A stretch of DNA of 64,000 bases from a bacterium (GCA_030616605.1 JAUWWY010000002.1:118867-182866), one strand, 5' to 3'; counted from the first letter of the stretch, positions 13,573 through 57,745 are shown. Made by a program: numbers and translations. The notes: generated by a model not told the origin, from the letters alone.

Positions 13573-13595
13573 AATTCAAGATATATAATTATTCC

Positions 13596-13750
13596 TTAGC
13601 GAATCAAGGTTCTGCTGAGCGTTAGCGAGGCATGGTTCTTATAACATAGTAAGAACCTGCTCGCTTCGCTCACAGAACCTTCTAATTACTGCGTTCGGTC
13701 GAAAACTGAAAATGAATTTTCAGTTTTCTCCCTCACTTGTAATTATAAAT
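13596..13750 (-). promoter_or_regulatory. Copy A of a repeated structured leader/promoter element, oriented toward the S1-domain gene
   Basis: Shares two blocks (32 nt at 13717-13748 and 33 nt at 13673-13705, as reverse complement) with 28711-28742 and 28757-28790. Contains TATAAT and an imperfect ~80-nt palindrome built from AAGGTTCTG...GGTTCTTA units. Confidence 0.5.
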
Positions 13751-13811
13751 ATACCTGAAAATTCTAGTTATTGCAAGGGAAAGGTAGTTTATGCTAATAT
13801 AAATTAAGTCT

Positions 13812-14465
13812 ATGCAAATTACCTGGTATGGACAATCTTTTTTTGAAATAAAGATAAAAAACGAAGAAAAAGACTTCCTCAGCTTAACTATTGACCCTTT
13901 TGATGAAAGTTTGGGCTTAAAAGTTCCCAAAATTAAAAGCCAGATTTTACTTATCACTCATTCTCATCCTGACCACTCAAATATTAAGGCTGTTAAGGGA
14001 GAACCTTTTTTAATTGAGGAACCCGGCGAATACGAGGTAAAAGAAGTTTTTATAAAAGGAATTCTATCTTTTCATGATAATCTTCAGGGCAAAGAAAGAG
14101 GAACCAATGTTATTTATAAAATTAAAGCTGAGGAGATAAATCTTTGTCATTTAGGAGATTTGGGTCAAAAAGAATTAAGCTCAGAGCAGCTTGAAGAGAT
14201 TGGTCAGGTGGATATTTTAATGATTCCGGTCGGTGGGGTTTACACTATTGACGCCAAGACAGCAGCTTCAATTGTTTCCCAAATTGAGCCCAAAATAGTT
14301 ATCCCGATGCATTATAAGATTCCCAGGCTGAAATTAAAACTTGAGAGTTCAGATAAGTTTTTAAAAATAATAGGAGCTGAAAAAGTTCAACCCCAGAAAA
14401 ATCTAAAAATTAAATCAAAAGATTTAACAAAAGAAGAAATCGAAATCATGGTTCTTAGCCCTTAA
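13812..14465 (+). CDS. Metallo-beta-lactamase-fold metal-dependent hydrolase (UPF0173-like)
   Basis: MQITWYGQSFFEI...LLITHSHPDHSN. Confidence 0.6.
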   Translation: MQITWYGQSFFEIKIKNEEKDFLSLTIDPFDESLGLKVPKIKSQILLITHSHPDHSNIKAVKGEPFLIEEPGEYEVKEVFIKGILSFHDNLQGKERGTNVIYKIKAEEINLCHLGDLGQKELSSEQLEEIGQVDILMIPVGGVYTIDAKTAASIVSQIEPKIVIPMHYKIPRLKLKLESSDKFLKIIGAEKVQPQKNLKIKSKDLTKEEIEIMVLSP

Positions 14466-14466
14466 A

Positions 14467-14706
14467 ATGAATGTTTTTTATAAAAAACTTATTCTTTTTG
14501 GAATAATTGTTATTTTAGCCATTCCTTTAAGTCTTTTTATGATAAAAAACTTTCAAGAAAATTTGGAAAAAAGTAAAAATAAAAAATTTTTCAAAGAATT
14601 CAAATCAGAAGAAATAAAAGAGAAGAAAAATGAATTCCAAACTGAATTGGAAAAAATAGGAGAGATGATTAAACAATCAGCAACTTCAAGCACAACTACT
14701 GACTAA
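14467..14706 (+). CDS. Small membrane protein, hypothetical
   Basis: N-terminal TM helix; translationally coupled to neighbouring genes. Confidence 0.3.
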
Positions 14707-14708
14707 TT

Positions 14709-17180
14709 ATGCCAAACGATTCTCAAAAACAGAATAAGGAGATAGGTTATATAAAGCCCCGGGAAATTACTGAGGAAATGAGAGACAGTTATTTGGATTA
14801 TGCGATGTCAGTTATTATCTCTCGAGCTTTACCGGATATCCGCGACGGTTTGAAGCCGGTCCACCGCCGAATTTTGTATGCAATGAATGAAATGGGCTTA
14901 AAGCATAATGTGAAATCCAGAAAATCAGCTACTGTTGTCGGAGAAGTTCTTGGAAAATTTCATCCGCATGGCGATACGGCTGTTTATGATTCTTTAGTGA
15001 GAATGGCTCAAGATTTTTCTTTAAGATATCCATTAATTGAAGGTCAGGGAAATTTTGGTTCAATTGATGGGGATTCTGCGGCTGCCCAAAGATATACCGA
15101 GTGCCGACTTTCAGCCCTGGGGGAAGAAATACTTCGCGATATTGAAAAAGATACAGTTGATTTTAGAGAAAATTATGATGGAACAAGAAAAGAACCTGTT
15201 GTCCTCCCTTCACCTGTTCCTCAACTATTACTTAATGGTTCATTAGGAATTGCCGTGGGAATGGCAACCAAGATTCCTCCTCATAACATTTCTGAAGTAA
15301 TGAAAGCTTGTATCTATTTAATTGACCATCCTGACTCTACCACGGAAAAGATTTTTCAATTTATTGAAGGACCTGATTTTCCAACAGGCGGTATAATTTA
15401 TGGTAAAAAAGATATAATCTCTGCTTATTCTCAAGGAAGGGGTCCGATTTTAATAAGAGGTAAAGCAGAAATTAGAGAGCAGGAAAGAAGCAATTTCCAA
15501 ATTATAATCACTGAAATTCCTTTTCAGGTTCAAAAATCAGATTTGGTTAGGGATTTTGCTAAATTAGTTGAGGATAAAAAGATAGAGGGGATAAAGAATA
15601 TCAGAGATGAATCAGACCGAGAGGGAATGAGAATTGTAATTGAACTTAAGAGAGAAGCTTTTCCGAAAAAAGTTTTAAATGCCCTCTATAAATACACGGC
15701 CTTGCAGAAAACCTTTTATTTAAATATGTTGGCTTTGGTTGACGGCATCCAGCCGAAAATCCTTTCTTTAAGCGACATTTTAACTTTATATTTAAAACAT
15801 AAAAAAGAGGTTGTTATCCGGAGAACAAAGTTTGATTTAAGAAAAGCAAAAGAAAAAGCTCATATTCTTGAAGGACTAATGGTAGCTTTGAAAAATATTG
15901 ATGAGGTGATTAAGACTATTAAGAAATCATCTTCTCGGCAAGAAGCTCAAAAGAACTTAATGAAGAAGTTCAAACTAACTCAAATACAGGCAACAGCTAT
16001 TTTAGAGATGAAACTTCAGAGTTTAGCAAAACTGGAGCGAGAAAAAATTGAAAAAGAACTTAAAGAGATAAAAGCGAGAATAAAAGAATTAACTTTAATT
16101 TTAAAAAGTCCTAAAAAAATAAAAGAGGTGATAAAAAAAGAACTTAAAGAAATGGCTGAGAAATACAAAGACGAAAGAAAAACAAAAGTTATAACTTCTT
16201 CACCTGGAGAAATTGGCGAGGAAGAATTAATTCCCAAAGCTGAAACGATTATAACCTTAACTCAAGGAGGATTCATTAAAAGGGTTAAACCTTCATTGTA
16301 TAAAATTCAAAAGAGAGGAGGGAAAGGAATTATGGGTCTTGAGGTTTCCAAAGAGGATATGGTTGAACACTTTTTAATGGCGAACACCCTGGACAAACTT
16401 TTATTTTTTACTGACTCAGGAAAGGTTTTTCAATCTCTGGTTTGGGAAATTCCTGAAATGAGCAGAATTTCTAAAGGCAGAGGACTTTTAAATTTTTTGG
16501 AAATATCCCAAAGCGAAAAAGTTTTAGGTCTTATTTCCTATGGTAAAGAAGATGAGCAGAAGAAGAAGTATTTAGTAATGGTAACCAAAAATGGTATAAT
16601 TAAAAAAACAGATGTTCAAGCTTTTCAAAATGTCCGTAGGAATGGATTAATAGCTATTAAACTCGGAAAAGAAGACTTTTTGAAAGAAGCTAAAATTATT
16701 GATGAAAGAGATGAAATACTTTTAGTAACTAAGAAAGGGAAATCTATTAGATTTAAGGAAAAAGATTTAAGAGCAATTGGTAGGGCAGCAGCCGGAGTTA
16801 GGGGAATGAGATTAAGTAAAAGAGATGAGATAATTAGAATGGACATAATAAAAGTTCAAAGTGCAAAACTCAAAGCGCAAAACTATCTGTTAATAATTAC
16901 TGAAAATGGCTATGGCAAAAGAACTAAGATTGGAGAGTACAGAATCCAGAAAAGAGGAGGTTCAGGGATAAAAACAGCAAGAATTACTGAAAAAACCGGA
17001 GAAATCGTTTTCTCTCGAGTAGTCGGTAAAGAGGAAAAAGATTTAATTGTTATTTCTAAAAAAGGTCAGGTAATAAGAGTTCCTCTTAGTTCAATTTCAA
17101 TTATTGGCCGAGCCGCATCCGGAGTAAGAGTAATGAAATTAAGCAAAGGAGATAAAGTAGCTTCAGCTATTTGTCTCTAA
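14709..17180 (+). CDS. gyrA: DNA gyrase subunit A
   Basis: [29 protein letters not shown] and C-terminal beta-pinwheel repeats. An in-frame CAAAG-family repeat lies at 16863-16886. Confidence 0.9.
16863..16886 (+). repeat. CAAAG-family patch GCAAAACTCAAAGCGCAAAACTAT inside gyrA
   Basis: Encodes SAKLKAQNY. Shares CTCAAAGCGCAAAACTAT with the argS copy. Confidence 0.8.
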
Positions 17181-17184
17181 AAAC

Positions 17185-17706
17185 ATGCCAGAATTTGTTA
17201 ATCCAATTGAAATTTTAAATCAACTAGAACTCCAAAGCTCTATGATTGCGGCTGATTTTGGCTGTGGGACTGGGGGTTGGACAATTCCTTTAGCTCAGCG
17301 TTTAGAACAGGGAAAAGTTTTTGCCATAGATATTTTAGAGGAACCTCTTTCGGCTTTGAAAGCAAAAACAAGCCTCCAAGGCATTTCTAATATTAATAGA
17401 ATTTTAGCTGATGTTGAAAGGGGGGTTCCAGAAATCCAGGATTCTTCCTGTGATTTGGTTTTAATGACTGACCTTTTATTCCAGATTGACGAAAGAGAAG
17501 TTGTTTTTAAAGAAGCAAATAGGGTTTTGAAAACCGGCAGTAAAATTTTAGTAGTTAGCTGGAATGTAGATTCTTCTTTTGGTCCCAGACAAGGAAAGGT
17601 TTCTCCAGACGAGGTCAAAGAAATTGCCAAAAATTCTGGATTTAAGCTTGAGAAACAATTCAAGGCTGGCGACTACCATTACGGATTGGTATTTACTAAA
17701 GTTTAA
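17185..17706 (+). CDS. Class I SAM-dependent methyltransferase
   Basis: ADFGCGTGGWTIPLAQ motif I. Confidence 0.5.
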   Translation: MPEFVNPIEILNQLELQSSMIAADFGCGTGGWTIPLAQRLEQGKVFAIDILEEPLSALKAKTSLQGISNINRILADVERGVPEIQDSSCDLVLMTDLLFQIDEREVVFKEANRVLKTGSKILVVSWNVDSSFGPRQGKVSPDEVKEIAKNSGFKLEKQFKAGDYHYGLVFTKV

Positions 17707-17720
17707 TTTATAATGGAATA

Positions 17721-18116
17721 ATGAGAAAATTTATTGTAATTTTAATTCTTTCAATAATTTTATTGACACAGGCGAGTTTTATTTTGGCTGCAGCTGCTCC
17801 TGATTGTGATACTTATTGCCAAAATACAAGTACTTGGGACCCACCTGAAGGAGAATTTTGTTTTTGTTCCCCTATTTCTGCTACTTCTGTTGAAGCTATT
17901 GTAGGGCGCATAACCAATTGGGTTTTCTATATTGGTATAATTCTTGCTCCCTTAATGATTATTATCGGCGCTTTTATGTTCTTGACCTCAGCTGGCGAAC
18001 CTGATAAAGTTAGAAGAGCAAAAAAGCTAATTATCTGGACAATTATCGGTTTAGCAGTTATACTGTTTAGTAAAGGACTAATAAGTTTAATAAAATATAT
18101 CTTATTAGGAACATAA
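17721..18116 (+). CDS. VirB2/TrbC-like type IV secretion pilin paralog 1 (Cys-rich)
   Basis: Sec signal peptide, then a Cys-rich stretch, then ITNWVFYIGIILAPLMIIIGAFMFLTSAGEPDKVRRAKKLIIWTIIGLAVIL. This is the two-helix core seen in VirB2 (xxGWLFYVALAI...AKARAKQMLVYAVIGL). Confidence 0.5.
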   Translation: MRKFIVILILSIILLTQASFILAAAAPDCDTYCQNTSTWDPPEGEFCFCSPISATSVEAIVGRITNWVFYIGIILAPLMIIIGAFMFLTSAGEPDKVRRAKKLIIWTIIGLAVILFSKGLISLIKYILLGT

Positions 18117-18138
18117 TAAAAAGGTCGAAAAACCTTAA

Positions 18139-18576
18139 TTGATGTTAAATAAAAAGAAAATGAAAAAAATATTAGCAGGTCTAATTTTGGGAGGATTATT
18201 GGTTAGTTTGTTTTTACCTCTGGCTGTTTCTCAGGCTCAAGAAGTACTTCCTCCTGATAGCTGTAAAATGGCGCATACTATTGCGAACTGTCCAGCTAGC
18301 GGAAATGATTGTGATTTTGACAGCACCACCTATGATTGTGGAATATGTTGTATGCTTAACACTATCTATACTGTTACTAATTGGATTTTTTATATTTTAA
18401 TTCTAGTGGCAGTAATTATGATTATTCTTGGTGGTTTTGTTTTTATGACTGCTGCTGGAAGTCCGGAGAAAACGGCAAAGGGAAGAAATATTGTTGTTTA
18501 TGCTGTTATTGGTATAGCCATTGCTATTATAGCAAAATTGGTTCCTGTATTAGTTAGAACTATTATTGGATTCTAA
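18139..18576 (+). CDS. VirB2/TrbC-like type IV secretion pilin paralog 2 (Cys-rich)
   Basis: Signal peptide, then 7 Cys in about 40 aa, then VTNWIFYILILVAVIMIILGGFVFMTAAGSPEKTAKGRNIVVYAVIGIAIAI. Confidence 0.5.
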   Translation: MMLNKKKMKKILAGLILGGLLVSLFLPLAVSQAQEVLPPDSCKMAHTIANCPASGNDCDFDSTTYDCGICCMLNTIYTVTNWIFYILILVAVIMIILGGFVFMTAAGSPEKTAKGRNIVVYAVIGIAIAIIAKLVPVLVRTIIGF

Positions 18577-18603
18577 AAATAATTCTCTTTTAAATTTTTT
18601 AAA

Positions 18604-18643
18604 ATCAACTCCCTCTTCTCTGAGATGGGAGTTGATTTTAATT
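18604..18643 (+). terminator. Rho-independent terminator after the pilin pair
   Basis: ATCAACTCCC...GGGAGTTGAT stem followed by TTTTAATT. Confidence 0.55.
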
Positions 18644-18656
18644 AGAATAAAAGAAA

Positions 18657-18685
18657 TTGACATAGAAAGATATTTATGCTATACT
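18657..18685 (+). promoter_or_regulatory. Sigma-70-type promoter P1 (TTGACA-17-TATACT)
   Basis: Exact -35 hexamer, 17-nt spacer, 5/6 match at -10. Confidence 0.5.
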
Positions 18686-18728
18686 AAAATAGTTAATAAA
18701 AATTAAATATTAAAATTTCATAAAAGGG

Positions 18729-18757
18729 TTGACAAAGCAAGATAAATTTGCTATAAT
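18729..18757 (+). promoter_or_regulatory. Sigma-70 consensus promoter P2 (TTGACA-17-TATAAT)
   Basis: Perfect consensus hexamers with a 17-nt spacer. AAAGGAGGT RBS at 18790, 5 nt before the ATG at 18803. Confidence 0.6.
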
Positions 18758-18802
18758 GTAAACGTTCATTGAAAATTAAATATTACAAAAAGGAGGTTTG
18801 AA

Positions 18803-19219
18803 ATGAAACCTACAGTACTAATAACAGCGTTGGTTTTGGGTTTTGGTCTTCTCTTCTCGGGTTGTGCTTCTCGGATGCTCATAATCCCTAAAGATTATGA
18901 GGGGAGCAAAAAGCTGATTGAGAGATGGGGTTCTAACGTTACTCTTGCCGTTGTAAAAGAAGATGGTAGTCTGGAAGTTTATAATAACCGCTACCCTCCC
19001 TTCCCTCCCCTCGGCAAGTTTGAACTCACAATAGACTCCACAGGTGCTGTTTCTCATAAAGGCACTCTCCCTGGCTATGGATACTCAAGCTATGGTTACT
19101 CTGGCTACGGTTACCCCGGCTATGGCTCGGCTGTTCCAGGAGTTCATCGTAAACCACCCAGTAGTCCTGAGTATTACCGTAAACTACCCAATCGTCATGA
19201 AAGTTACCGTAGATATTGA
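18803..19219 (+). CDS. Lipoprotein with Gly/Tyr-rich C-terminal low-complexity tail
   Basis: Lipobox LFSGC, and a YGYSSYGYSGYGYPGYG tail. Confidence 0.5.
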   Translation: MKPTVLITALVLGFGLLFSGCASRMLIIPKDYEGSKKLIERWGSNVTLAVVKEDGSLEVYNNRYPPFPPLGKFELTIDSTGAVSHKGTLPGYGYSSYGYSGYGYPGYGSAVPGVHRKPPSSPEYYRKLPNRHESYRRY

Positions 19220-19328
19220 TAGCCATTAATCTCTAAACCCAAAAGCGTCAGTTCATAAAAGACTGGCGCTTTTTCTTTGACTTGATTTTTATTATTTTAG
19301 AGATAGAATAATAAATAAAGTTTATTTT

Positions 19329-19411
19329 GTCCCCGTGGCGGAACTGGCAGACGCGTATGGTTTAGGACCATATCCTATTATGGGGTGCAGGTTCAAATCC
19401 TGCCGGGGACA
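19329..19411 (+). tRNA. tRNA-Leu (anticodon UAG)
   Basis: Class II tRNA: long D-loop GCGGAACUGGCAGACGC, anticodon loop UUUAGGA, long variable arm, T-arm CAGGUUCAAAUCCUG. Confidence 0.8.
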
Positions 19412-19434
19412 CATCACTTCGTTCAGTGTAAACT

Positions 19435-19466
19435 AAAAAAACCGCGGTTAAACCGCGGTTTTTTTA
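19435..19466. terminator. Bidirectional rho-independent terminator (shared by the tRNA-Leu unit and the convergent hsp20 gene)
   Basis: AAAAAAACCGCGGTT-AAA-CCGCGGTTTTTTT is a perfect 13-bp stem with A-run and T-run flanks. Confidence 0.65.
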
Positions 19467-19985
19467 TTAATCATTAGACGTAATACTAACTTTCTTTTTC
19501 TTGGTCTTTTTTGCCCTTGGAATTTTAATGGTTAAAATTCCTTTTTCAAGAGAAGATTTAACTCTTTGAGTATCAATGTTTTCCGGTAAAATTATTTGTC
19601 TTGAGAAAGGTCCCCAATAACATTCTTGATAAAAATAATCCTTCTCTTTATTTGCTTCCGGCTTTTTTCTTTCTCCCTTTATCAGCAACATCTCATTTTC
19701 AATTGTGATTTCTATATCTTCGGGAGTTACTCCAGCAATCGGTGCTTGAACACAAAACTCAGAATCAGTATTGTAAACATCAACCGTTAATTCTCCTTCA
19801 GATTTTGACCAACTCTGGGTTGTTTTCTTTGTTGCTAAGACATCCTCTTTTTCTTTTTTCATTTGTTTTTTTTCAACCCTCCCCCTTTTTTTAGGTTTTT
19901 CTCCTTCTATTTTTATTGGTTTTGTCACCTTTTCTGAATTTTTTTCAACCCCGATATCCTTTTTTAGTTTGTTTAAAAAAGACAT
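19467..19985 (-). CDS. Hsp20/alpha-crystallin family small heat-shock protein
   Basis: ACD core GELTVDVYNTDSEFCVQAPIAGVTPEDIEITIENEMLLIKGERK...ILTIKIPRAKK. Confidence 0.7.
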   Translation of the reverse strand: MSFLNKLKKDIGVEKNSEKVTKPIKIEGEKPKKRGRVEKKQMKKEKEDVLATKKTTQSWSKSEGELTVDVYNTDSEFCVQAPIAGVTPEDIEITIENEMLLIKGERKKPEANKEKDYFYQECYWGPFSRQIILPENIDTQRVKSSLEKGILTIKIPRAKKTKKKKVSITSND

Positions 19986-19989
19986 AGAT

Positions 19990-20694
19990 TTATATTTTAC
20001 AGATACTTTTCAACCTTTTTAGTTTTTTAATGCTTAAAGAAATAAAGCAAGCTAAAACTATTAAAATTATAAGAGGTAAAATAAATTTTGCCAAACCTTC
20101 TATTTTCATTATAGAAAAATTATAGAGTCCATGTAAAGTGGTAGCTATTCCCAGACCAGCTAAAACTAACCATTTTCTTTTTTTAAAATGGAAAAAAGAT
20201 AAAGCCAAAAAATAGCCAATTGAAGCTGAACAAAGAGCGTGCAAGAAAGTCGCTGAAACAAACCGCCAGGCCATAGTTTCCAAAGCTTTACCAATAGTTA
20301 AAAAAGGATGGAAGCTGCTTAAAACCAAAATATTTTCTAAACTTGCAAAACCAAGCGCAGAAATAATCATGTAAAGTAAAATATCAACAGGTTCATCTAA
20401 TTCAGAGTTTTTATAAACTCCGATTCTGACAGCTAGATATTTTGAATATTCTTCAATTAAAGCTCCTCCCAAAAAGATAGCTAAAATAGAACTTAAAGTT
20501 TTTTGATTTTTTAAAAAAGAAATTAAAAAGTGAAAGCCCTTTTCTAAAAAAATAGCCAGAAAAGCAGCTATTATTCCGAAAAAGAAAATTTTCAAAACCA
20601 TCCTGTTTGGTTCAGGATGAACATCTTTTCTGAGATAAAAAATCAGCCAGATAATACCCGGGAGAAAGCCGAGAAGATAAGGAAGATAACTCAT
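19990..20694 (-). CDS. PrsW-family intramembrane metalloprotease
   Basis: EEYSKYLAV, GFASLEN and HGLYNF motifs on a polytopic membrane protein. Confidence 0.6.
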   Translation of the reverse strand: MSYLPYLLGFLPGIIWLIFYLRKDVHPEPNRMVLKIFFFGIIAAFLAIFLEKGFHFLISFLKNQKTLSSILAIFLGGALIEEYSKYLAVRIGVYKNSELDEPVDILLYMIISALGFASLENILVLSSFHPFLTIGKALETMAWRFVSATFLHALCSASIGYFLALSFFHFKKRKWLVLAGLGIATTLHGLYNFSIMKIEGLAKFILPLIILIVLACFISLSIKKLKRLKSICKI

Positions 20695-23213
20695 AGTTTT
20701 GGCCAGGTTTCTACCATTAAGAACCTTTTTTTCCTTTTCAAGGGTAATCTCTGATAAATTTCTTCAGTAATAAATGGCATAAAAGGATGGAGAAGTTTTA
20801 AAGAAGTTAGTAAAACATACAATAAAATCTTTTTGGTATTCTCTTTTTCTTTTTGTGATTTGCTTTTTTCAATATAAATATCACAAAAGTCGTGCCAGAA
20901 AAAGTGGTATAAATTTTGAGCTGCTTGTCCAAATCTAAAATTTTCTAAATCTTTTTCAACTGATTTAATTGTTTCTTCAAGACTCTTTAATATTTTTTTA
21001 TCTGCTTTGGTTAAGTTTTGAACTTTGAACTGTAGCTTTGAGCTTTGAGCTTTGAGCTTTGAATTTGCAGTTTGTTGTAGAACAAACCGCGTAGCATTCC
21101 AAATTTTATTACAAAACTTCTTTCCCATCACAATGTTATTTTCCTCAAATCTAATATCTTGGACTCCTGTTGTCTGCCAAGTTAAACCAAAGCGAGTAGC
21201 ATCGCTCCCATATTTTTCAATCAACTCTAAGGGGTCAATACCTGTGCCAAGCGACTTTGACATTCTCTGTCCAGTTTTTGTCAAAATAGTAGCATGGATG
21301 TAGGCTGTTTTAAAAGGAGCTGTTTTCATAAATTCCAAACCAGAGAAAATCATTCGGGCTATCCAAAGATTTACAATACTGCGATCCGACGAAATAAAGT
21401 GGTTGGGGTAAAATTCTTTAAGACCCCTTGTTTTTTTAGGCCAACCAAGAATTACAAAGGGCCAAAGGGCAGACGAGAACCAGGTATCCAAAACATCTGT
21501 TTCTTGTCTTAATTTTCCTTTATTGCAACTAGGACATTTTTTTAATGCATATTTATCGTCTACAATGGGAAGACATTCACTTTCAAATCTATAAGTATAA
21601 ATCCAAACCAAAGTATCAGTATTCACTTCTTTTTCCGGATGGTGTCGTTTAAAAGCAGTGATTAATTCTTCTAATTTTTTGTATGTTTTCCAGTGTTTTT
21701 TATCTTTAAGGTCAATTTTACCAACAGTTGTTTTTTGGATTTCTGTTATTATTGCTGTTCCGAAAATTTCACCTGTAATACTATTTTCAAAAGCAACTTT
21801 TTCTCCAACCTTTAAGCCATGATTACGCAGTCGGTAAGTCTGAGTTTTATTATCAAAAACTTGCGGTACTACATCTCCAGCAAAACCCATTTTAGAAGTG
21901 GTATTTTTGATTTTTTGTTCTGAATTTTCACAATACCAAATTGGAATCTGATGACCCCACCAAATTTGTCTTGAGATACACCAATCTTTGATGTTTTTTA
22001 ACCAATCAAAATAAATTTTTTCAAAATTTTTTGGATAAATTTTTACCTTTTTCTCTTTAACGGCATTTTTAGCTTTTTCCGCTAATTTTTCCATTTTTAA
22101 AAACCATTGCTTTGAAGGAATAATTTCAACTATTGTATTACAGCGATAACATTTAGGAATAGCCAAATTATGGTTTTTTTCTTTTTCTAAAAGATTAAGT
22201 TTTTTAAGTTTTTTAATTATTTCCTCTCGAGCCTTAAGAGTTTTTAATCCCCTAAAAGAAAGGGGAGCAGCTTTGGAAATTTTTCCTTTTTCATCAATTA
22301 CCTGAACCAAGGGGAGTTTATGATTAATACTGATTTCGTAATCCTTTAAATCATGGGCTGGGGTTACTTTTACAGCCCCTGTCCCAAATTTAGGGTCGAC
22401 CAATTTATCAACAACAATCGGGATTTCTCTATTAACTATTGGTAAGATTATTTTTTGGCCAATCAGATTTTTATATCTTTTATCTTTCGGATTGACTGCT
22501 ACTGCTGTATCACCAAGCATTGTCTCGGGTCTAGTTGTTGCTACCACAAGATAATCAGCTTTGCGCTTTGCGCTTTGCGCTTTGAGTTTATATTTAATGT
22601 ACCAAAGTTTTCCCTTTTTTTCTTCATATTCAAGTTCCAAATCTGATAAGCTGGTTTGACATCTTGAACACCAATTAATCGGTCTTTTTCCCTGATAAAT
22701 CCAACCTTTTTTATAATAGTGCAAAAAAGCTTGCTCCACCGCCTTGACATAATTTCTATCCATAGTAAACCGAGTTCTTGACCAATCACAGCTACATCCA
22801 AGTTTTTTTAATTGGTCTAAGATAATATTGCCGTATTTTTCTTTCCACTGCCAAATTTTTTTGATAAATTTTTCTCTACCTAAATCAAAGCGGGTTTTAT
22901 TTTGTTGTTTAAGTTCTTTCTCAACGACATTTTGAGTAGCAATCCCGGCATGGTCTGTTCCTGGCAGCCAAAGAACTTTTTCACCTTTCATTCTTTTTTT
23001 TCTTACCAAAATATCAACTAAAGTATTTTCCAAAGCATGACCCATATGCAAGCTGCCCGTTATATTAGGTGGGGCAATGGCTACAACAAACTTCTTAATT
23101 TTTTTCTTTTTGGCTGTTGGTAGTTTATCTGGATTGAAAAAACCTGATTTTTCCCAGACACGGTAGATTTTATCTTCCACTTTTTTTGGATTGTAAGTTT
23201 TTGATAATTTCAT
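20691..23213 (-). CDS. valS: Valyl-tRNA synthetase
   Basis: HIGH region PPNITGSLHMGHAL and KMSKSLGT. Two in-frame CAAAG-family repeat patches (21016-21070 and 22572-22605). Confidence 0.9.
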   Translation of the reverse strand: MKLSKTYNPKKVEDKIYRVWEKSGFFNPDKLPTAKKKKIKKFVVAIAPPNITGSLHMGHALENTLVDILVRKKRMKGEKVLWLPGTDHAGIATQNVVEKELKQQNKTRFDLGREKFIKKIWQWKEKYGNIILDQLKKLGCSCDWSRTRFTMDRNYVKAVEQAFLHYYKKGWIYQGKRPINWCSRCQTSLSDLELEYEEKKGKLWYIKYKLKAQSAKRKADYLVVATTRPETMLGDTAVAVNPKDKRYKNLIGQKIILPIVNREIPIVVDKLVDPKFGTGAVKVTPAHDLKDYEISINHKLPLVQVIDEKGKISKAAPLSFRGLKTLKAREEIIKKLKKLNLLEKEKNHNLAIPKCYRCNTIVEIIPSKQWFLKMEKLAEKAKNAVKEKKVKIYPKNFEKIYFDWLKNIKDWCISRQIWWGHQIPIWYCENSEQKIKNTTSKMGFAGDVVPQVFDNKTQTYRLRNHGLKVGEKVAFENSITGEIFGTAIITEIQKTTVGKIDLKDKKHWKTYKKLEELITAFKRHHPEKEVNTDTLVWIYTYRFESECLPIVDDKYALKKCPSCNKGKLRQETDVLDTWFSSALWPFVILGWPKKTRGLKEFYPNHFISSDRSIVNLWIARMIFSGLEFMKTAPFKTAYIHATILTKTGQRMSKSLGTGIDPLELIEKYGSDATRFGLTWQTTGVQDIRFEENNIVMGKKFCNKIWNATRFVLQQTANSKLKAQSSKLQFKVQNLTKADKKILKSLEETIKSVEKDLENFRFGQAAQNLYHFFWHDFCDIYIEKSKSQKEKENTKKILLYVLLTSLKLLHPFMPFITEEIYQRLPLKRKKRFLMVETWPKL
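21016..21070 (-). repeat. CAAAG-family patch (coding strand CAAAGCTCAAAGCTCAAAGCTACAG) inside valS
   Basis: Plus strand reads TTTGAACTTTGAACTGTAGCTTTGAGCTTTGAGCTTTGAGCTTTGAATTTGCAG; encodes KLKAQSSKLQFKVQNL. Confidence 0.8.
22572..22605 (-). repeat. CAAAG-family patch (coding strand CTCAAAGCGCAAAGCGCAAAGCGCAAAGCT) inside valS
   Basis: Encodes KLKAQSAKRKA. Confidence 0.8.
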
Positions 23214-23214
23214 T

Positions 23215-24294
23215 TTAAATTCGTAAATTAGCTTCGGCTTTGATTTGTTTCCAAGATTTCTTTTTCTTTCTGTTAAAATAAGCGGCTACTCCAACCATTG
23301 CTGCATTGTCAGTACAGAAATTAGTAAATGGCAAATGGCAAATGGCAAATGGTAATTGTTTTTTTACAGCTTCTTTCATTTGCTTTCGCAATTCATTGTT
23401 TGCAGTAACTCCTCCTCCCAATAGGATGCTTTTTGCTTTGTATTCTTTCGCCGCCTTGATTGTTTTTTTAATTAAAACATCAATAATTGCCTGTTGAATT
23501 TCTTTTGCCATTTCTTTAACATATCCTTTTGAGGTTCTGATTTTCTTACTTCTTTTTTTAAAGTCATACAAAACAGCAGTTTTTAATCCAGAAAAACTAA
23601 AGTCATAATCTTTACTGTTTATCATCGGTCTCGGCAGCTTTAGTTTAAATCTTGAATCTTGAATCTTGAACTTTTTAGCTAAAGCGGCAATAGCTGGGCC
23701 GCCGGGATAGGAAAGGCCTAAAATTCTGGCTGTTTTATCAAAACATTCTCCAGCAGCATCATCTCTTGTTTCACCGATTATCTTGTATTTGCCAATCTTT
23801 TTCATTAAAATCAATTGGCTATGTCCTCCGGAGATAACTAAACAAATTGCTGGAAACTTAATTAGATTGTTCGGTTTTGTAATAAGCCAATTGGCGAGAA
23901 TATGAGCTTCTATGTGATTTGCTGGAATAAGGGGTAATTTCCATTCTTGAGCCAGGGCTTTGGCGAAGTTTATTCCCGTCCACAAACATGGGTCTAATCC
24001 TGGTCCTATTGTGATTGCAATGGCATCAACTTTTTTAAGGAGATTAGCTTCTTTTAATGCTTTTTTTAAAACTGGTTCAAGATTTTTCCGATGTTCTCTT
24101 TTAGCCAGAGACGGATAAACTCCGCCATATTTTTGATGTAATTTTACTTGTGAAGATACAACATTGCTTAGAATTTTAAATTTCTCTTTTTTTACTTCTA
24201 ATATAGCAATACAAGTATCGTCGCAGGAAGTATCAATAGCCAGAATAATCATGGTTTTATACTTTATGATACCTGAAACATTGATTTTTTTCAA
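23215..24294 (-). CDS. tsaD: tRNA N6-adenosine threonylcarbamoyltransferase TsaD (Kae1/YgjD family)
   Basis: ILAIDTSCDDTCIAIL, DFSFSGLKTAV and CTDNAAMVG. Two in-frame heptamer patches (23326-23357 and 23647-23671). Confidence 0.8.
   Translation of the reverse strand: MKKINVSGIIKYKTMIILAIDTSCDDTCIAILEVKKEKFKILSNVVSSQVKLHQKYGGVYPSLAKREHRKNLEPVLKKALKEANLLKKVDAIAITIGPGLDPCLWTGINFAKALAQEWKLPLIPANHIEAHILANWLITKPNNLIKFPAICLVISGGHSQLILMKKIGKYKIIGETRDDAAGECFDKTARILGLSYPGGPAIAALAKKFKIQDSRFKLKLPRPMINSKDYDFSFSGLKTAVLYDFKKRSKKIRTSKGYVKEMAKEIQQAIIDVLIKKTIKAAKEYKAKSILLGGGVTANNELRKQMKEAVKKQLPFAICHLPFTNFCTDNAAMVGVAAYFNRKKKKSWKQIKAEANLRI
23326..23357 (-). repeat. In-frame heptamer patch (plus strand AAATGGC x3) inside tsaD
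   Basis: Direct reading; encodes LPFAICHLPF next to the conserved CTDNAAM motif. Confidence 0.75.
23647..23671 (-). repeat. In-frame heptamer patch (plus strand AATCTTG x3) inside tsaD
   Basis: Direct reading. Confidence 0.75.
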
Positions 24295-24319
24295 TTTTTA
24301 AGATAGGATTTACTAATCA

Positions 24320-24394
24320 GGCCCCGTCGTCTAGCCCGGTTTAGGACGCAGGGTTTTCATCCCTGTAACAGGGGTTCAAATCCCCTCGGGGCCG
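24320..24394 (+). tRNA. tRNA-Glu (anticodon UUC)
   Basis: GGCCCCGUCGUCUAGCCCGGUUUAGGACGCAGGGUUUUCAUCCCUG...GGGGUUCAAAUCCCCUCGGGGCCG. CCA is encoded at 24395-24397. Confidence 0.85.
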
Positions 24395-24461
24395 CCATAA
24401 GAAGATAAAAATACCCAGCTCGGACTGGGTATTTTTATAATAGATTTTAATTTTATCGATT

Positions 24462-25176
24462 TCAGGGTTGGATTCCATCAGAATCACTTTCTTCGGTTGA
24501 AGTAGCTTCTTCTAAGGATTCAAGTTCAACGTATTGGCTTAAAATTTCTTCCAGTTCTTTCTTAGCTTTAAAGCTGTAATAAACTTCATCATTAATAATT
24601 ATAATTGGCAGGTTTTTTTCTAAAAAGTAAATTGATTTTAAGGCTTGGATAGCTGAGAGATCCAAATCAAAATCAAAGGAATAAACTCTTAAAAAAGGAT
24701 ATTTTCCTCTAAGATTAGTTAAAATATAACCCTGGTTTTCGCAATCAGGACAGGTTTTCTTGTCTGAATAAAAGTAAATTATTGAAACAATATCTAAATC
24801 ACACTCTTTTACTGCTTTTTTTAAAAGGAGCCAGTGTTTTATTTCCAAAATTGAATAGTATTTTTTTAACCTTAAAAAATAAGAATTATTTCTGCCTAAA
24901 GTACTGCTGATTGAAGCTAATCTTCTGGAGATTTCATAAAGCTCTTGGGTTAAAGTTGACTCGTTTAAATTTTCACAGGGAGCTTGAGCTAAAATGGAAA
25001 ACTGAGTTTCCAGAGAAAGAATATCAATCCTTAAATCCTCTTGAACAGCTGTTATTTGGAGCATCCTTTTTTCTGCCAAGAAGTTACTTAAAAAAAAGCC
25101 ACTACTGAAAATTATCAAGGTAATTAAAAATATTAAAAAGTGTCTTTTCCAATTAAATTTCTTTTTCTCAGACATA
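24462..25176 (-). CDS. Membrane-anchored hypothetical protein with CPDC (CxxC) motif, possibly thioredoxin-like
   Basis: I took the start at the internal ATG (MSEKKKFNWKRHF...) because the longer ORF overlaps the upstream gene. One TM helix, then a soluble domain with CPDCENQGY. Confidence 0.3.
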
Positions 25177-26415
25177 TTATTGCCAAGAGATATCTTTTCT
25201 GACGAGAATAAAAAAGAAAGCAGAAATCCACCAAATTGCATTCAAAAAGACATATAACAAAAGATAAAAGACAGTATTTTTTGTTATAGATTTCTTATCA
25301 AAAGTAAGTTTTTTACTAAGAAATATGTAAGTTAAAATAGCAACTAAAGAAAGGAATCCTAAAATAAGAGTTGGTCTTATTAGTCCTAGATTAAATAAAA
25401 TCCAATCAGGCTGAAAAGAAAAAAGATTAAAGTAATCAAGTCCGACCAGTAAAAAATTATTAATTTTTTCTAAAAAGAAAAAACCGATTTTCCAGAAAAT
25501 GTAGCCGACTAAAACTATGGAGATGAAACTAGCGATAACGCTATAATAAAGCAAAAAGGAAAGATTGCCATGTTTTTTAATGTTTAGGAGCTCGAGATAA
25601 TCTTTAAGATTTAAAAGAAGACCTCTTCGCCATCTTAATCTTTGGTGGAAAAGAGACTTGAAAGTTGGGCAAGCTTTGGTGTAAACCAAGGAATCAATAG
25701 CATGGGCAATTTTGAAATTTGCTTTTTGAAGGCGAAAAGCAAATTCCAAATCTTCAGTCTGATGAGCTTTTCGATAAGGACCCAAAATTTTATAGACTTC
25801 CCGCCGGAAAACAGAAAGAGGACCAGGAGTGACATTAAGACTATCCAATATTGAAAAGACTTTTCTCAAGAAAGCAGCTATTAAAAATTCAATATATTGA
25901 ATTCCTTCTATAATGTTTTTTACTTCAGAAATTTTAATTGTTGAAATAACAGCCATTATTTTTTTATCTTCAAAATACTTCATTACTTTTTTCAAAGCTT
26001 TAGAATCTAAATAGGAGTCGCCATCAAGGGAACCAATAAATTGAGCTTTGGTTTTCAATAATCCGTAATTCAAAGCAGTATATTTGCCGCCGTTTTCCTT
26101 TCGGAAAACTCTAACTTGTTTAGTTCTTTTTTCAAAAGCTTTAGCTTTTAAAAAAGTGTCGTCTTTACTTCCGTCATCAACAACAATAATTTCTAATTTT
26201 TCCCTGGGATAGTCTAAATTTAATAAAGAATCAAGAGTTCTTTTTATATTTTTCCCTTCGTTGTAGCAGGGAACAATCAGACAAACCGAAGGAAAATTTT
26301 CTTTTTTTAAGCCCTTGTAAATCTCTTTTCGATTTTCAAAAAAGGTACTCAGGACAAAAATAGAAAAATAAAGTCCAAGAAATATTGCAATATATAAAGT
26401 TTCTATTAATATCAT
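25177..26415 (-). CDS. Family 2 glycosyltransferase with C-terminal membrane domain
   Basis: VPCYNEGKNIKRTLDSL, VVDDGSKDDT, DGDSYL and QRLRWRRG (the QxxRW motif of processive GT2 enzymes). Confidence 0.7.
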   Translation of the reverse strand: MILIETLYIAIFLGLYFSIFVLSTFFENRKEIYKGLKKENFPSVCLIVPCYNEGKNIKRTLDSLLNLDYPREKLEIIVVDDGSKDDTFLKAKAFEKRTKQVRVFRKENGGKYTALNYGLLKTKAQFIGSLDGDSYLDSKALKKVMKYFEDKKIMAVISTIKISEVKNIIEGIQYIEFLIAAFLRKVFSILDSLNVTPGPLSVFRREVYKILGPYRKAHQTEDLEFAFRLQKANFKIAHAIDSLVYTKACPTFKSLFHQRLRWRRGLLLNLKDYLELLNIKKHGNLSFLLYYSVIASFISIVLVGYIFWKIGFFFLEKINNFLLVGLDYFNLFSFQPDWILFNLGLIRPTLILGFLSLVAILTYIFLSKKLTFDKKSITKNTVFYLLLYVFLNAIWWISAFFFILVRKDISWQ

Positions 26416-26441
26416 TGTTTTAGTATAAACAATAAAAAAGA

Positions 26442-28622
26442 TTATTCCAAGTGGATTTTCTTTTTAAACCTTTTCAATCTTTCTTTCAAAATAGGATAAT
26501 TTTTTAATCCCGGATTTTCAATTAAAATCTCTTTTGCTGATTCTCTTGTTTTTTCCACAAGCTGAAGGTTTTTTAAATTTTCCATTGCTAAATCCGGAAT
26601 GCCCCATTGTCTCGCTCCAAAAAAGTTTCCCGGGCCTCGAATTTCCAAATCTTTTTGAGCTAATTCAAATCCATCTTTTGCCTTGAGCATTGCTGTCAAT
26701 CTCTGACGAGTTTTTTTAGCTTTTGACTCGGTAAATAAAAAACAGTAAGATTGCAAATCAGATCTTCCGACTCTGCCCCGAAATTGATGTAGTTGAGCCA
26801 GGCCAAATCTTTCGGCACCTTCAATCATCATTACGGTTGCTTGAGGGATATCAATCCCCACCTCAACTACAGAAGTTGAAACTAAAATATCAATTTTTTT
26901 ATTTCGAAAATCTTTCATTATCTTTTCTTTTTCTTTTGTTTTTATTTTACTATGGAGCATTTCAATGGTTAGATTAGGAAAAATTTCTTTTGAAAGTTTT
27001 TTATATTCCTCTTTAACTGCTTTAACATCTGTCCAACTTGATATATTTTTTTTGTCACTTGTCCCTTGCTGCTTGTCTCCCGGTTCTATTCTGGGACAAA
27101 TAACAAAAACCTGCTCACCAGCCTTAACTCTTTTTCTGATAAAATTATAAGCTTCATTTTTTTCTTTTAATGAAACAACTTTAGTAATAACCTTTTTTCT
27201 TCCTTTTGGCATTTCGTCTAAGATTGACAAATCCAAATCACCATAGACTGTCAAAGCTAAACTCCGAGGAATAGGGGTAGCAGTCATTGAAAGAAGATGA
27301 GGGATTTTTAGATTTTTACTGTTGATTCTTGGCTGTTGGATAAGTTTTGTACGCTGTTCTACACCAAAGCGGTGTTGTTCATCAATTATACATAAAGCCA
27401 AATTGCCAAATTTAACTTTATCCTGAATTAAAGAATGAGTGCCAATTAAAATATCAATTTCTCCTTTTCTAATTTTATCTAAAAGTTTATTTCGGGAAAT
27501 TTCTAAAATTTCAGGATTTAACCCTGAGCTTGTCGAATAGGCTAATTTTTGAGAAACAATTTTATCTTCTTTCCCAGTCAAAAGAGCAATTCTTACTTTA
27601 AATGGTTTCAGTAATTTTGGAACTTGTTGAAAATGTTGTTTGGCTAAGATTTCAGTTGGAACCATAAAAGCCACCTGGTAACCAGAAAGAACAGTATTCA
27701 GGCTGGCAATTAAAGCAACTATTGTTTTTCCGGAACCAACATCTCCTTGAAATAATCTTGACATTGGTCTTGGTTTTTCCAAATCTTTTAGAATTTGCCA
27801 ACTGCATTTTTTTTGGGCATCAGTTAATTTAAAGGGCAAAGAATCAACAAACTCTTTTATTAAATCAAGATTTAAAGGAATAGAAGGAGCTTTTTCTTGA
27901 TTTAATTTCAATCTTTCTTTTAAAACCGCTAACTCTATTAAAAACAGCTCCTCAAAGGAAAATCTTTCTTTTGCTTTTTCAGCCAATTTTATTGAATTTG
28001 GAAAATGAATCTGCCAGATTGCCTCTTGAATTGGTAAAAGATTGTATTTTTTGATTACTTTTTCCGGCAAAGATTCTTCAATTTGATTTTTAAATTTTTC
28101 CAAAATTAGTTTTAAAATCCATCTTAACCATTTTGAAGAAAGTCCTTCGGTTTCTGGATAGATAGGAATTATTCTTCCGGTATGGATAAGGTCGGATGTT
28201 GAATAATTAGATGCTAGAGATAGCTTTTCATAACTTGGACTTGATAGATAAATTCCCTCTTTGTCTAAGCTTGCTTTTCCAGCTAAACAAACATTATCTC
28301 CTTTTTTTAAAACCCTTATCAAATAGGGCTGGTTAAACCAAATAACTTTTATTGCTCCATTTTTATCTTCAACTACAGCCTCAGTTATAATTATCTTCTT
28401 TTTCCAGGTTCTTGAATTTTTAATTTCTAAAATTTTTCCTGCAATGCAGTTTGTTTGATTAATTTTTACTTTAGAAATAGGATGAATATTTGAAAAATCC
28501 TCATAGCGGTGAGGATAATGAAAGAGAACGTCTTCTATTGTTTTTATCCCTATCTTTTCTAACTTTTTCTGGAAAACTGGTCCAATCCGTGATATTTTTT
28601 TAACAGAAGTATCAAGCTTCAT
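26442..28622 (-). CDS. recG: ATP-dependent DNA helicase RecG
   Basis: GDVGSGKT, DEQHRFGV and MTATPIPRSL, with an N-terminal wedge domain. An in-frame heptamer patch lies near 27048-27079. Confidence 0.85.
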   Translation of the reverse strand: MKLDTSVKKISRIGPVFQKKLEKIGIKTIEDVLFHYPHRYEDFSNIHPISKVKINQTNCIAGKILEIKNSRTWKKKIIITEAVVEDKNGAIKVIWFNQPYLIRVLKKGDNVCLAGKASLDKEGIYLSSPSYEKLSLASNYSTSDLIHTGRIIPIYPETEGLSSKWLRWILKLILEKFKNQIEESLPEKVIKKYNLLPIQEAIWQIHFPNSIKLAEKAKERFSFEELFLIELAVLKERLKLNQEKAPSIPLNLDLIKEFVDSLPFKLTDAQKKCSWQILKDLEKPRPMSRLFQGDVGSGKTIVALIASLNTVLSGYQVAFMVPTEILAKQHFQQVPKLLKPFKVRIALLTGKEDKIVSQKLAYSTSSGLNPEILEISRNKLLDKIRKGEIDILIGTHSLIQDKVKFGNLALCIIDEQHRFGVEQRTKLIQQPRINSKNLKIPHLLSMTATPIPRSLALTVYGDLDLSILDEMPKGRKKVITKVVSLKEKNEAYNFIRKRVKAGEQVFVICPRIEPGDKQQGTSDKKNISSWTDVKAVKEEYKKLSKEIFPNLTIEMLHSKIKTKEKEKIMKDFRNKKIDILVSTSVVEVGIDIPQATVMMIEGAERFGLAQLHQFRGRVGRSDLQSYCFLFTESKAKKTRQRLTAMLKAKDGFELAQKDLEIRGPGNFFGARQWGIPDLAMENLKNLQLVEKTRESAKEILIENPGLKNYPILKERLKRFKKKIHLE
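27048..27079 (-). repeat. In-frame heptamer patch (coding strand GACAAGC AGCAAGG GACAAGT GACAAAA) inside recG
   Basis: Direct reading; encodes GDKQQGTSDKK. Confidence 0.6.
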
Positions 28623-28708
28623 AAAGATTGCTAAAATTTGACTTTTACCTTAAAATTATTATAGGTGAGACTTAGGTTAAAATCAACATTTTCTTTTTTT
28701 AAATCTTT

Positions 28709-28900
28709 TGTTATAATTACAAGTGAGGGAGAAAACTGAAAAGTTTTACTTTTCGATTTTTCGACCGAACGCAGTAATTAGAAGGTTCTGCCGAAGGCAG
28801 GTTCTTACTTCCGAACAAAGTGAGACAAATTAAATGAGTTTATTCATTTAATTTGCGAACGAGTGAGGAGGCAAGGTTCTGCCGGAGGCAGGTTCTTATA
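28709..28900 (+). promoter_or_regulatory. Copy B of the repeated structured leader/promoter element, oriented toward the 28943 gene
   Basis: TTATAATTACAAGTGAGGGAGAAAACTGAAAA (28711-28742) and TTTTCGACCGAACGCAGTAATTAGAAGGTTCTG (28757-28790) are identical to copy A. Two AAGGTTCTGCCGRAGGCAGGTTCTTA hairpin units lie at 28783-28808 and 28873-28898. Confidence 0.5.
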
Positions 28901-28942
28901 CTAAAAGAAAGGAATTTAAAGGTCAATCTAAATAAATTAAAT

Positions 28943-29209
28943 ATGTCAAATAATAATCAAGAAGGAAAACTTATTGGTAAAGTTAGTCATTATTTTGACA
29001 AGATTGAGGTAGCAGTAATTGATTTGGATAACTCTCTAACAGCTGGAGATACTATTAGAATTGTTGGGGGAGAGGAGACAGACTTTACTCAAGAGGTGGA
29101 ATCAATGGAGGTTGATCACGAGAAGATTAAAAAAGCAAAAAAAGGAGATTCGGTCGGTCTGAAAGTTAAAGAAAAGGTGAGAGAGGGTTACAAAGTATAC
29201 AAACTGTAA
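28943..29209 (+). CDS. Small beta-barrel protein resembling EF-Tu domain II (hypothetical)
   Basis: GDTIRIVGGEETDFTQEVESMEVDHEKIKKAKKGDSVGLKV pattern. I used the internal ATG because the longer ORF would run through the leader element. Confidence 0.3.
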   Translation: MSNNNQEGKLIGKVSHYFDKIEVAVIDLDNSLTAGDTIRIVGGEETDFTQEVESMEVDHEKIKKAKKGDSVGLKVKEKVREGYKVYKL

Positions 29210-34542: not shown

Positions 34543-34628
34543 AAGAAGTAAGAATACCCTAAATTAGAAAAGAAATTAGGGTTTTTTTGTGCTACAATTA
34601 TCTAAGCGAAGCGAAAGCATAATTACAA

Positions 34629-42626: not shown

Positions 42627-42678
42627 ATTTTGGCTCTGATACTTTAATTTTAGCAGAAATTGAGCTAAACTGAAACTA

Positions 42679-57712: not shown

Positions 57713-57745
57713 GCCCCAGCTGTTAGAAATGTAATAAAAAAAGAC

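Follow-up and report, generated by a model that had tools for sequence, protein, structure and literature searches.

The question raised by this locus is why two unrelated genes, in a genome region with very little intergenic space, should carry nearly the same hairpin-rich sequence in their promoter regions. The DNA concerned (GCA_030616605.1, JAUWWY010000002.1:118867-182866; hereafter the window, meaning the whole 64-kb stretch that was analysed) has a G+C content of 34%, has very short intergenic gaps and was assigned to the Patescibacteria from protein matches. It contains two copies of a structured repeat in opposite orientations about 15 kb apart. Copy A lies between a gene for a beta-lactamase-fold (MBL-fold) hydrolase and a gene for a three-domain, rpsA-like S1 protein, while copy B lies between recG and a gene for an 88-amino-acid (88-aa) beta-barrel protein, which is followed by mgtC and a permease gene. 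An initial annotation, made from the sequence alone, had offered both a shared cis-regulatory leader and an element resembling a miniature inverted-repeat transposable element (MITE) as explanations. In comparison with related loci, the copies prove to be inserted DNA: a short element, non-coding and with recognisable ends, occupies several unrelated loci in at least three lineages, always near a promoter. Copies A and B appear to have landed recently, just downstream of the promoters of two unrelated genes, and they probably belong to a family of small, non-coding, hairpin-rich, MITE-like mobile DNA confined to a narrow group of Patescibacteria.

Occupied and empty sites in relatives

At the S1 locus, three relatives (L001, L002 and L003; the prefix L marks loci from other assemblies) encode S1 proteins that are 97%, 89% and 69% identical to that of the window, and the spacer between the hydrolase and S1 genes measures ~70 nt in all three versus 239 nt in the window. 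When these loci are aligned, the flanks are identical and a single block of 172 nt is found only in the window, beginning right after GGTATATTTAT and ending at the S1 start codon. The S1 ATG of the relatives lies 4-6 nt after TATTTAT (TATATTTAT), overlapping a TTGCAA-17-TATATT promoter match, so the S1 leader in these organisms would be very short or absent; in the window, the structured 172-nt block separates the native promoter from the S1 ATG. Insertion A starts in a shared TTAT microhomology.

For the spacer between recG and the 88-aa gene (locus B), the comparison covered L006, L007, L010, L011/L012 and L013. L007 is very closely related to the window, with 99% identity in the 88-aa protein and no difference in the first 43 residues of RecG, and it has one module of the element where the window has two, the second module of copy B being the one that is missing; no module is present in L006 (from the same sample as L002, with permease and MgtC ~90% identical to those of the window), L010, L011, L012 (L011/L012 permease 74% identical) or L013. 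The L007 insert is flanked by an exact 10-nt direct repeat, AAGTGAGGAA, which can be extended to a match at 19/23 positions with the last 10 exact and the -10 box included. At the same place L006 reads TATAATTACAAGTG followed directly by GGGAATTTAAAGG, and the pattern at locus B could reflect insertion accompanied by duplication or else loss of the sequence between direct repeats. An extra insert of ~14 nt, GATTATAAGAACTT, is also present at positions 240-275 of L007 and includes TAAGAAC, the complement of the end of the unit hairpin described below.

Exact-match scans of genomes (one per species) and of metagenomes returned one more locus each, L004 and L005, in which stretches of 16 nt and 25-33 nt match the window exactly. 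In L004, a Patescibacteria assembly labelled Saccharibacteria with a RecG that is 63% identical, the element adjoins the 5' end of recG, as it does in the window, but the gene on the other side is a different one, for a low-complexity protein. A role as leader is impossible in L005, where the element lies antisense against the holA start codon and is directed toward the 3' end of a convergent gene and that gene's terminator. The holA site is empty in an 88% relative (L014/L015), and set against that site the native spacer of L005 is flanked by two distinct insertions: a GGTTCT unit of 46 nt, standing alone with an 8-bp direct repeat (TTATTTTC) on both sides, and a 109-nt element composed of the P1 hairpin plus a unit. 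The palindrome in L005 is two elements side by side and, by analogy, the palindrome of copy A would likewise consist of two adjacent elements.

The combination of empty orthologous sites with copies at non-orthologous loci indicates mobility and supports the MITE-like reading, and the patchy distribution of copies that are highly identical, even in a genome as distant as that of L004, also counts for a mobile element. The neighbouring genes are unrelated (S1, the 88-aa barrel, the low-complexity protein, holA in antisense and, at a decayed remnant, a major facilitator superfamily (MFS) gene), while the position of insertion is shared: a few bases downstream of an existing -10 box, in genes where a very short leader separates the promoter from the start codon. 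The suggestion in the initial annotation that a MITE-like element, not a transposon, had landed in promoters is upheld by these comparisons, as both copies are insertions relative to close relatives and non-orthologous copies exist elsewhere. In the relatives, the S1 and holA starts lie 2-9 nt after a -10-like box (L001 174-248, L002 1765-1838, L003 2572-2643 and L014 9924-10001), which suggests that the S1 and holA mRNAs are leaderless or near-leaderless in this group.

Anatomy of the element

The two window copies are related through inverted-repeat arms at 13717-13748 and 28711-28742 (32 nt, 100% complementary) and at 13673-13712 and 28751-28790 (40 nt, 93% complementary, with an exact 33-nt block inside), in agreement with the 32-nt and 33-nt reverse-complementary blocks first noticed at 13.7 and 28.7 kb. 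In a global alignment of 13650-13744 (-) with 28715-28807 (+), 86 of 99 columns are identical and the common core comes to ~95 nt; the repeats seen by the initial annotation are real, while the shared element is shorter than the 150-190 nt it proposed. The basic element measures 95-105 nt and the composite copies ~172 nt (A) and ~200 nt (B), all of them intergenic and without a plausible open reading frame (ORF). Further, the TATAAT box, thought to be internal, is located at the extreme left end of both copies, and the count of two copies has to be extended by a third, decayed fragment outside the interval first considered (Table 1). An exact 13-mer, ATAATTACAAGTG, occurs in the window only at A, B and this fragment.

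The basic element opens with the left end AATTACAAG, which is preceded by YAT at 5/5 sites, and the resulting junction, (T/C)ATAAT, constitutes the -10 box. Next comes the hairpin P1 (60-65 nt), the base of which is invariant and made of AAUUAC/GUAAUU and then GUGAG/CGAAC with tandem G-A mismatches, while the sequence of its tip differs among copies with the pairing kept. Six P1 pairs are changed on both sides, a number reached by 0/500 shuffles. An invariant block of 25 nt, CGAACGCAGTAATTAGAAGGTTCTG, follows, identical in both window copies, L004 and L005 and with one mismatch in L007. The remainder is a GC-rich unit hairpin closed by AAGGUUCUG/CAGGUUCUU, in which the two GGTTCT copies are opposite strands of one stem and pair through G-U wobbles; the 3' copy is GGTCCT in L004 and L005, converting one G-U wobble to G-C. 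Tandem G-A pairs recur in the inner stems of the unit hairpins, along with loops of the GAA type. At its right end the element reads CTTRTAAT(T), which repeats the left end imperfectly in inverted orientation, such that the termini can be written AATTACAAG...CTTGTAATT, with matches of 8/8 in L004 (ATTACAAG/CTTGTAAT) and 8/9 in L005 (AATTACAAG/CTTATAATT).

The unit hairpin is also found alone and beside the basic element, in direct or inverted orientation, which accounts for the two-unit architecture of copy B and the palindromic architecture of copy A. The palindrome recognised in copy A by the initial annotation folds as such, centred near 13645-13650 (-67.9 kcal/mol; z = -9.3 versus shuffled sequence), and copy B is also more stable than shuffled sequence (z = -5.9). 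All 13 of the hairpins examined (13/13) form more stable folds from the top strand than from the complementary one, indicating that the structure matters in a single-stranded form, either RNA or single-stranded DNA. Both unit hairpins of copy B, B-1 and B-2, were flagged as terminator-like (2 found, 0.2 expected). The motif GGTTCT-N(5-30)-GGTTCT has six matches in the window against 0.24 expected by chance, and four of the six fall within the copies, at 13608-13639 (+), 13652-13679 (-), 28784-28805 (+) and 28875-28896 (+). A covariance model built from five copies (R1) scores the basic element of copy A at 112.9 bits (E = 4e-25); its scores for the two modules of copy B are listed in Table 1.

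Table 1. Copies of the element, their parts and the genes downstream of them, in window coordinates.
Feature	Position	Strand	Details
S1-domain, rpsA-like gene	12793-13572	-	Downstream of copy A
Right junction of insertion A	13573-13598	-	TAAGGAATAATTATATATCTTGAATT, reaching the S1 start codon; AT-rich TATATA/TATATC near the ATG; may be either a duplicated target or part of the element
Unit A-2, second GGTTCT hairpin unit	13599-13641	+	GCGAATCAAG tail; inverted orientation, creating a ~80-nt palindrome; probably a separate insertion
Right-end inverted repeat, copy A	13640-13649	-	CTTACTATGTTAT, reverse complement ATAACATAGTAAG; 11/13 with one gap against left end ATTACA-AGTGAG
Copy A basic element	13650-13744	-	Left end AATTACAAG; P1 13684-13744; invariant block CGAACGCAGTAATTAGAAGGTTCTG; unit hairpin A-1 13650-13683; end GGTTCTTA
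TATAAT -10 box, copy A	13742-13747	-	Native TAT plus AAT of the element; 4 nt downstream of the native TTGCAA-17-TATATT promoter
TATAAT -10 box, copy B	28712-28717	+	TG two bases upstream (TGTTATAAT), an extended -10
Copy B module 1	28715-28807	+	P1 28715-28779 plus unit hairpin B-1 28780-28809; R1 89 bits, E = 3e-19
Copy B module 2	28808-28898	+	Diverged; shorter GUGAG/CGAAC hairpin P1' 28812-28869 plus unit hairpin B-2 28870-28900; R1 36.5 bits, E = 2e-6
Right-hand direct repeat, locus B	28896-28914	+	TTATACTAAAAGAAAGGAA, a decayed copy of left-hand TTATAATTACAAGTGAGGGA; -10-like TATACT by the native 5' untranslated region of the 88-aa gene
88-aa beta-barrel gene	28943-29209	+	Downstream of copy B; sub-threshold Pfam matches to GTP_EFTU_D2 and Peptidase_U32_C
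Third, decayed fragment	34605-34634	+	AGCGAAGCGA, from within unit A-1, and CATAATTACAAGTGA, from the left end; abuts the ATG (34635) of an MFS-type gene

Several observations concern the history of individual copies. The copies are mosaic, with the P1 of L007 resembling that of copy A and its unit resembling that of copy B. In the P1 tip, the perfect 12-bp stem is identical between the window (13701-13728) and L007 (337-364) and the 4-nt loop is inverted, TTCA in copy A and TGAA in L007, a flip that looks like one made in the DNA palindrome itself, by recombination or by template switching. The sequence ATTATTATAGGTGAGAC (28655-28671), situated ~55 nt before copy B in the promoter region of recG, where L007 has its extra ~14-nt insert, resembles the left end ATTACAAGTGAG and may be an older decayed copy. 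Unit A-1 and the 34.6-kb fragment both contain the sequence of the very stable mini-hairpin d(GCGAAGC), and TATAATTAC may bear a likeness to the geminivirus nonanucleotide TAATATTAC.

Searches for further copies, related families and mobilising enzymes added little to this set. In Rfam, searched at the gathering threshold for the whole window and up to E = 10 at both loci, only tRNAs, the tmRNA and chance-level matches were returned, none better than E = 0.28 at the copies, and the R1 model found nothing beyond the known copies in the window (filters off) and all fetched loci. Scans of viral contigs with two patterns gave only chance matches within coding regions (L008 and L009), and BLASTN against plasmid and phage collections gave zero matches to the element. 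Among insertion sequence (IS) families, possible links to the targets of IS200/IS605 or IS91 (TTAC, GTTC) and to IS6-family ends beginning GGTTCTG were considered, and both misfit the flanking repeats. A search of the available literature found no description of MITE-like or REP-like (repetitive extragenic palindromic) repeats in Patescibacteria.

As the initial annotation described, the S1 and 88-aa genes adjoin the copies and the interval between them includes gyrA, valS (an NCBIfam equivalog call at 979 bits against a cut-off of 704), tsaD and recG. The 13.7-28.9 kb interval also has pilin-like genes, Hsp20 and other non-transposase genes. A composite transposon spanning this interval was considered and rejected on account of the non-transposase (housekeeping) genes that fill the 15 kb between the copies, and because the copies are independent insertions.

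The window also holds a repeat family that is unrelated to the element, made of CAAAGCT/CAAAGCG/CAAAACT units with a 7-nt period; its runs span 40-65 nt and lie in frame within ORFs. These runs occur at 1440-1492, 16855-16904, 21011-21074, 22557-22595, 43943-43994 and 62343-62406, in gyrA, valS (twice) and three other genes, and encode K/A/Q/S-rich peptides (e.g., KLKAQSSKLK, SKRKTQSAKLQLKAQN); a short repeat appears to have been inserted, in frame, into housekeeping proteins. Elsewhere, a 1811-aa ORF (52277-57712) contains eight dispersed copies of a conserved ~25-nt motif, GGCAACGTCGGCATCGGGACG, and runs of a 12-nt-period repeat occupy its 3' end and the sequence just beyond (57336-57728). 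Two adjacent paralogous genes with T4SS_pilin domains lie downstream of gyrA and a methyltransferase gene (17721-18576), and a tmRNA gene (148.8 bits, tag ANLFNKPAYAIA) adjoins smpB (41740-42085 and 42177-42710), with the IF3 and L20 genes immediately downstream.

Weighing the explanations

A conserved cis-regulatory RNA leader, common to the S1 and 88-aa genes, would account for many of the properties of the two window copies, including the strong structure (z = -9.3 and -5.9), the compensatory changes in P1, the invariant 25-nt block, the conserved tandem G-A motifs, the terminator-like unit hairpins of copy B, folds that favour the transcribed strand and the orientation of both copies toward the downstream gene. 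It does not account for their distribution: the element is missing from the orthologous S1 leaders of L001-L003 and from the leaders of the 88-aa gene in L006, L010, L011 and L013, the number of modules ranges from 0 to 2 among near-identical strains, the copy in L005 faces a convergent gene and its terminator in antisense to holA, the downstream genes are unrelated and Rfam has no match. The leader reading proposed in the initial annotation, whether as attenuator, protein-binding leader or riboswitch, is by this distribution already largely refuted, and we regard it as improbable. The same insertion polymorphism and patchiness weigh on a stand-alone small RNA gene, duplicated along with its own promoter and a hairpin terminator and specifying an RNA of ~90 nt, because a needed RNA would not be missing from relatives as close as ~90%. 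Such a gene would suit the -10 box at a fixed distance from P1 in 5/5 copies, the terminator-like hairpin at the end of module 1, the L005 transcript that would lead into no gene and the top-strand-specific G-U wobbles and G-A pairs, but the conserved outer pairs of P1 overlap the -10 box and could not form in that RNA and the U-tracts after the hairpins are weak, making this a very improbable explanation. That GGTTCT-N(10-20)-GGTTCT represents the operator half-sites of a dimeric DNA-binding regulator, another proposal of the initial annotation, is scarcely credible. The motif is over-represented (6 versus 0.24 expected) and located in promoter regions, yet its copies form the two strands of one hairpin stem with G-U wobbles (the AAGGUUCUG/CAGGUUCUU pairing), their spacing varies over 10-20 nt, the 3' GGTCCT in L004 and L005 improves pairing where a half-site would have been preserved and the sites are missing from the same promoters in relatives.

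A different kind of explanation accepts the movement and dispenses with a dedicated transposition machinery, with promoter-plus-leader DNA of locus B copied elsewhere through ectopic recombination or gene conversion as a "putative mobile promoter". The empty sites of L006 and L011 carry TATAATTACAAGTG-like sequence, so that the -10/start region looks native there, yet it travels with copy A, the L005 copy and the 34.6-kb fragment. Further, the copies fall within the published definition of mobile promoters (50-100 nt, at least 80% identity, upstream of non-homologous genes; PMC3488235), insertion A begins with the TTAT microhomology and the copies are mosaic, the P1 of L007 being like copy A and its unit like copy B. 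Set against this, three lineages show at least five insertions that are independent of one another, one of them the isolated 46-nt unit bordered by an 8-bp repeat; the element also ends in inverted repeats, and near-identical copies are found in genomes with only 63% RecG identity. Together, the insertions, the end repeats and the distant near-identical copies fit an element with defined ends better than sporadic recombination, and we consider copying from locus B unlikely.

The reading as a MITE-like mobile element, which we hold to be the probable one, has to contend with several observations of its own. Flanking repeats differ from insertion to insertion (0, 8 or 10 bp), and no single clean mechanism fits them: the P1-type insertion in L005 has no flanking duplication, and that of copy A is not significant, a candidate target-site duplication having been dropped since the likeness of the right junction to the left flank was no better than that of shuffled sequence (matched by 67/500 shuffles). 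At locus B, the empty site in L006 already reads TATAATTACAAGTGGGGAAT, with a diverged version in L011, and this left-end-like sequence may be either a native promoter or the remnant of an older copy. The terminal inverted repeats are short and AT-rich, and the right-end repeat is degenerate in copy B (5/6 only in copy B and L007). The best-conserved part of the element is the internal 25-nt block and the termini are less so, a pattern that would also fit selection for an RNA or for protein binding. Few copies are seen: the 64 kb hold three modules and one fragment, and ~58 kb of relatives' loci lacking the element hold none. A scan of 36 of the 55 window ORFs revealed no transposase, and in particular no Y1 domain, no REP-associated tyrosine transposase (RAYT) and no TnpA.

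Transcription of the MITE-like element would start from the -10 box at the junction (TGTTATAAT in copy B) or, at copy A, from the native promoter 4 nt upstream. The resulting RNA would have P1 as a 5'-terminal stem-loop, a position that protects bacterial transcripts from decay, followed by one or two hairpins resembling weak terminators. The unit hairpins together with UUCUUA have the look of weak intrinsic terminators, and the 3' end of a short RNA or attenuated transcript would be expected after GGUUCUUA. Transcripts beginning with the conserved blocks, as the initial annotation envisaged, are in this sense plausible, and the element would add a structured leader or a short RNA before whichever gene it lands beside. 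The right junctions appear to keep a -10-like sequence (TATACT at locus B and TATATA/TATATC at copy A), such that the genes may keep a gene-proximal promoter and the effect of the element may be small. The outermost conserved pairs of P1, AAUUAC/GUAAUU, overlap the -10 box and cannot form in an RNA started there, which argues against a structure that acts purely at the RNA level.

A more ambitious version would make the element a mobile, promoter-seeking RNA module that preferentially enters the few bases separating a -10 box from the start codon where leaders are very short, perhaps while the promoter DNA is melted, and installs a conserved protein-binding RNA structure (the GUGAG/CGAAC tandem G-A helix plus the 25-nt block), thereby placing unrelated genes, including that for ribosomal protein S1, under one post-transcriptional control in reduced Patescibacteria genomes. 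A binding partner is hinted at by the internal block, which is invariant, and by the conserved G-A helix, though we offer the module as a whole as a long shot.

Significance and relation to known systems

Patescibacteria genomes are very small and tightly packed, and the loci compared here indicate that elements of this type exist in them and move on the time scale of strain divergence. Even an essential gene, that for S1, can have such an element separating its promoter from its start codon. For RNA discovery, the case is a caution that a strongly structured, covarying, promoter-linked repeat at two genes can be a mobile insertion and not the signal of a regulon, and it is the comparison with empty sites in relatives that tells the two apart. 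The element is new for the phylum, while its kind is already known.

Prokaryotic MITEs are <500 bp long, with terminal inverted repeats of 4-30 bp, direct repeats around young copies, AT-rich intergenic targets, transcripts with stable stem-loops and sigma-70-like promoters (PMC10969869). The element fits this general description (PMC10969869), being short, non-coding, located in AT-rich intergenic DNA and present or absent at orthologous sites. The agreement of its ends varies, with terminal repeats that match at 8/8 positions in L004, 8/9 in L005 and 11/13 (gapped) in copy A but only 5/6 in copy B and L007, and direct repeats flank some of the insertions only. The closest functional analogue is provided by the neisserial Correia repeat-enclosed elements (CREE). 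These are mobile, non-coding and ~100-200 bp long, end in inverted repeats, insert beside genes, create or carry sigma-70-type promoter boxes at their ends, are co-transcribed as stable stem-loops and alter adjacent expression (PMC2649163, PMC10969869), effects that would have their counterpart here. The sequences are unrelated, and CREE have long, well-conserved terminal repeats, a TA duplication and hundreds of copies, in contrast to the imperfect terminal repeats of 8-13 nt, the variable flanking repeats of 0, 8 or 10 bp and the few copies seen in a Patescibacteria host.

The pneumococcal BOX, RUP and SPRITE repeats are similar in being small, interspersed and structured, in their insertion polymorphism among strains and in their likely effect on co-transcribed genes, and SPRITE resembles a rho-independent terminator (PMC3049150, PMC10969869). 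They differ in sequence and host, and the present element has a -10 box at one end, documented insertions that are all close to promoters and a far lower apparent copy number. The varying count of sub-modules in the present element is reminiscent of BOX elements, which have a modular make-up. Like REP sequences, the 25-40-nt GGTTCT unit is an imperfect palindrome that occurs singly, in tandem and as inverted pairs in long hairpins similar to REP doublets (PMC3116915), and its better-folding top strand would suit single-stranded recognition. However, no RAYT gene was found among the scanned window ORFs, and four units in 64 kb compare with hundreds per genome for REPINs, the REP doublets that form hairpins (bioRxiv 10.1101/119743). 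The arms of the L005 doublet are also separate insertions around native DNA and not one replicative unit, which places it outside the REPIN/RAYT definition. An 8-bp flanking duplication is not expected from HUH-type transposition, and palindrome-associated elements derived from IS200/IS605 have subterminal hairpins, are not known to carry terminal inverted repeats or to duplicate their target, and insert 3' of a fixed target of 4-5 nt. The YAT left flank at 5/5 sites and the hairpins recall these HUH elements, but inverted repeats and flanking repeats of 8-10 bp are present as well.

Lastly, putative mobile promoters are promoter-containing sequences of 50-100 nt that recur, at least 80% identical, in front of non-homologous genes of the same or of different genomes (Matus-Garcia et al. 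2012, PMC3488235), and the 86/99 identical columns shared upstream of the S1 and 88-aa genes, TATAAT included, fall within this definition. That category is an operational one without a mechanism, whereas the promoter box described here forms the first bases of a longer structured element with ends of its own.

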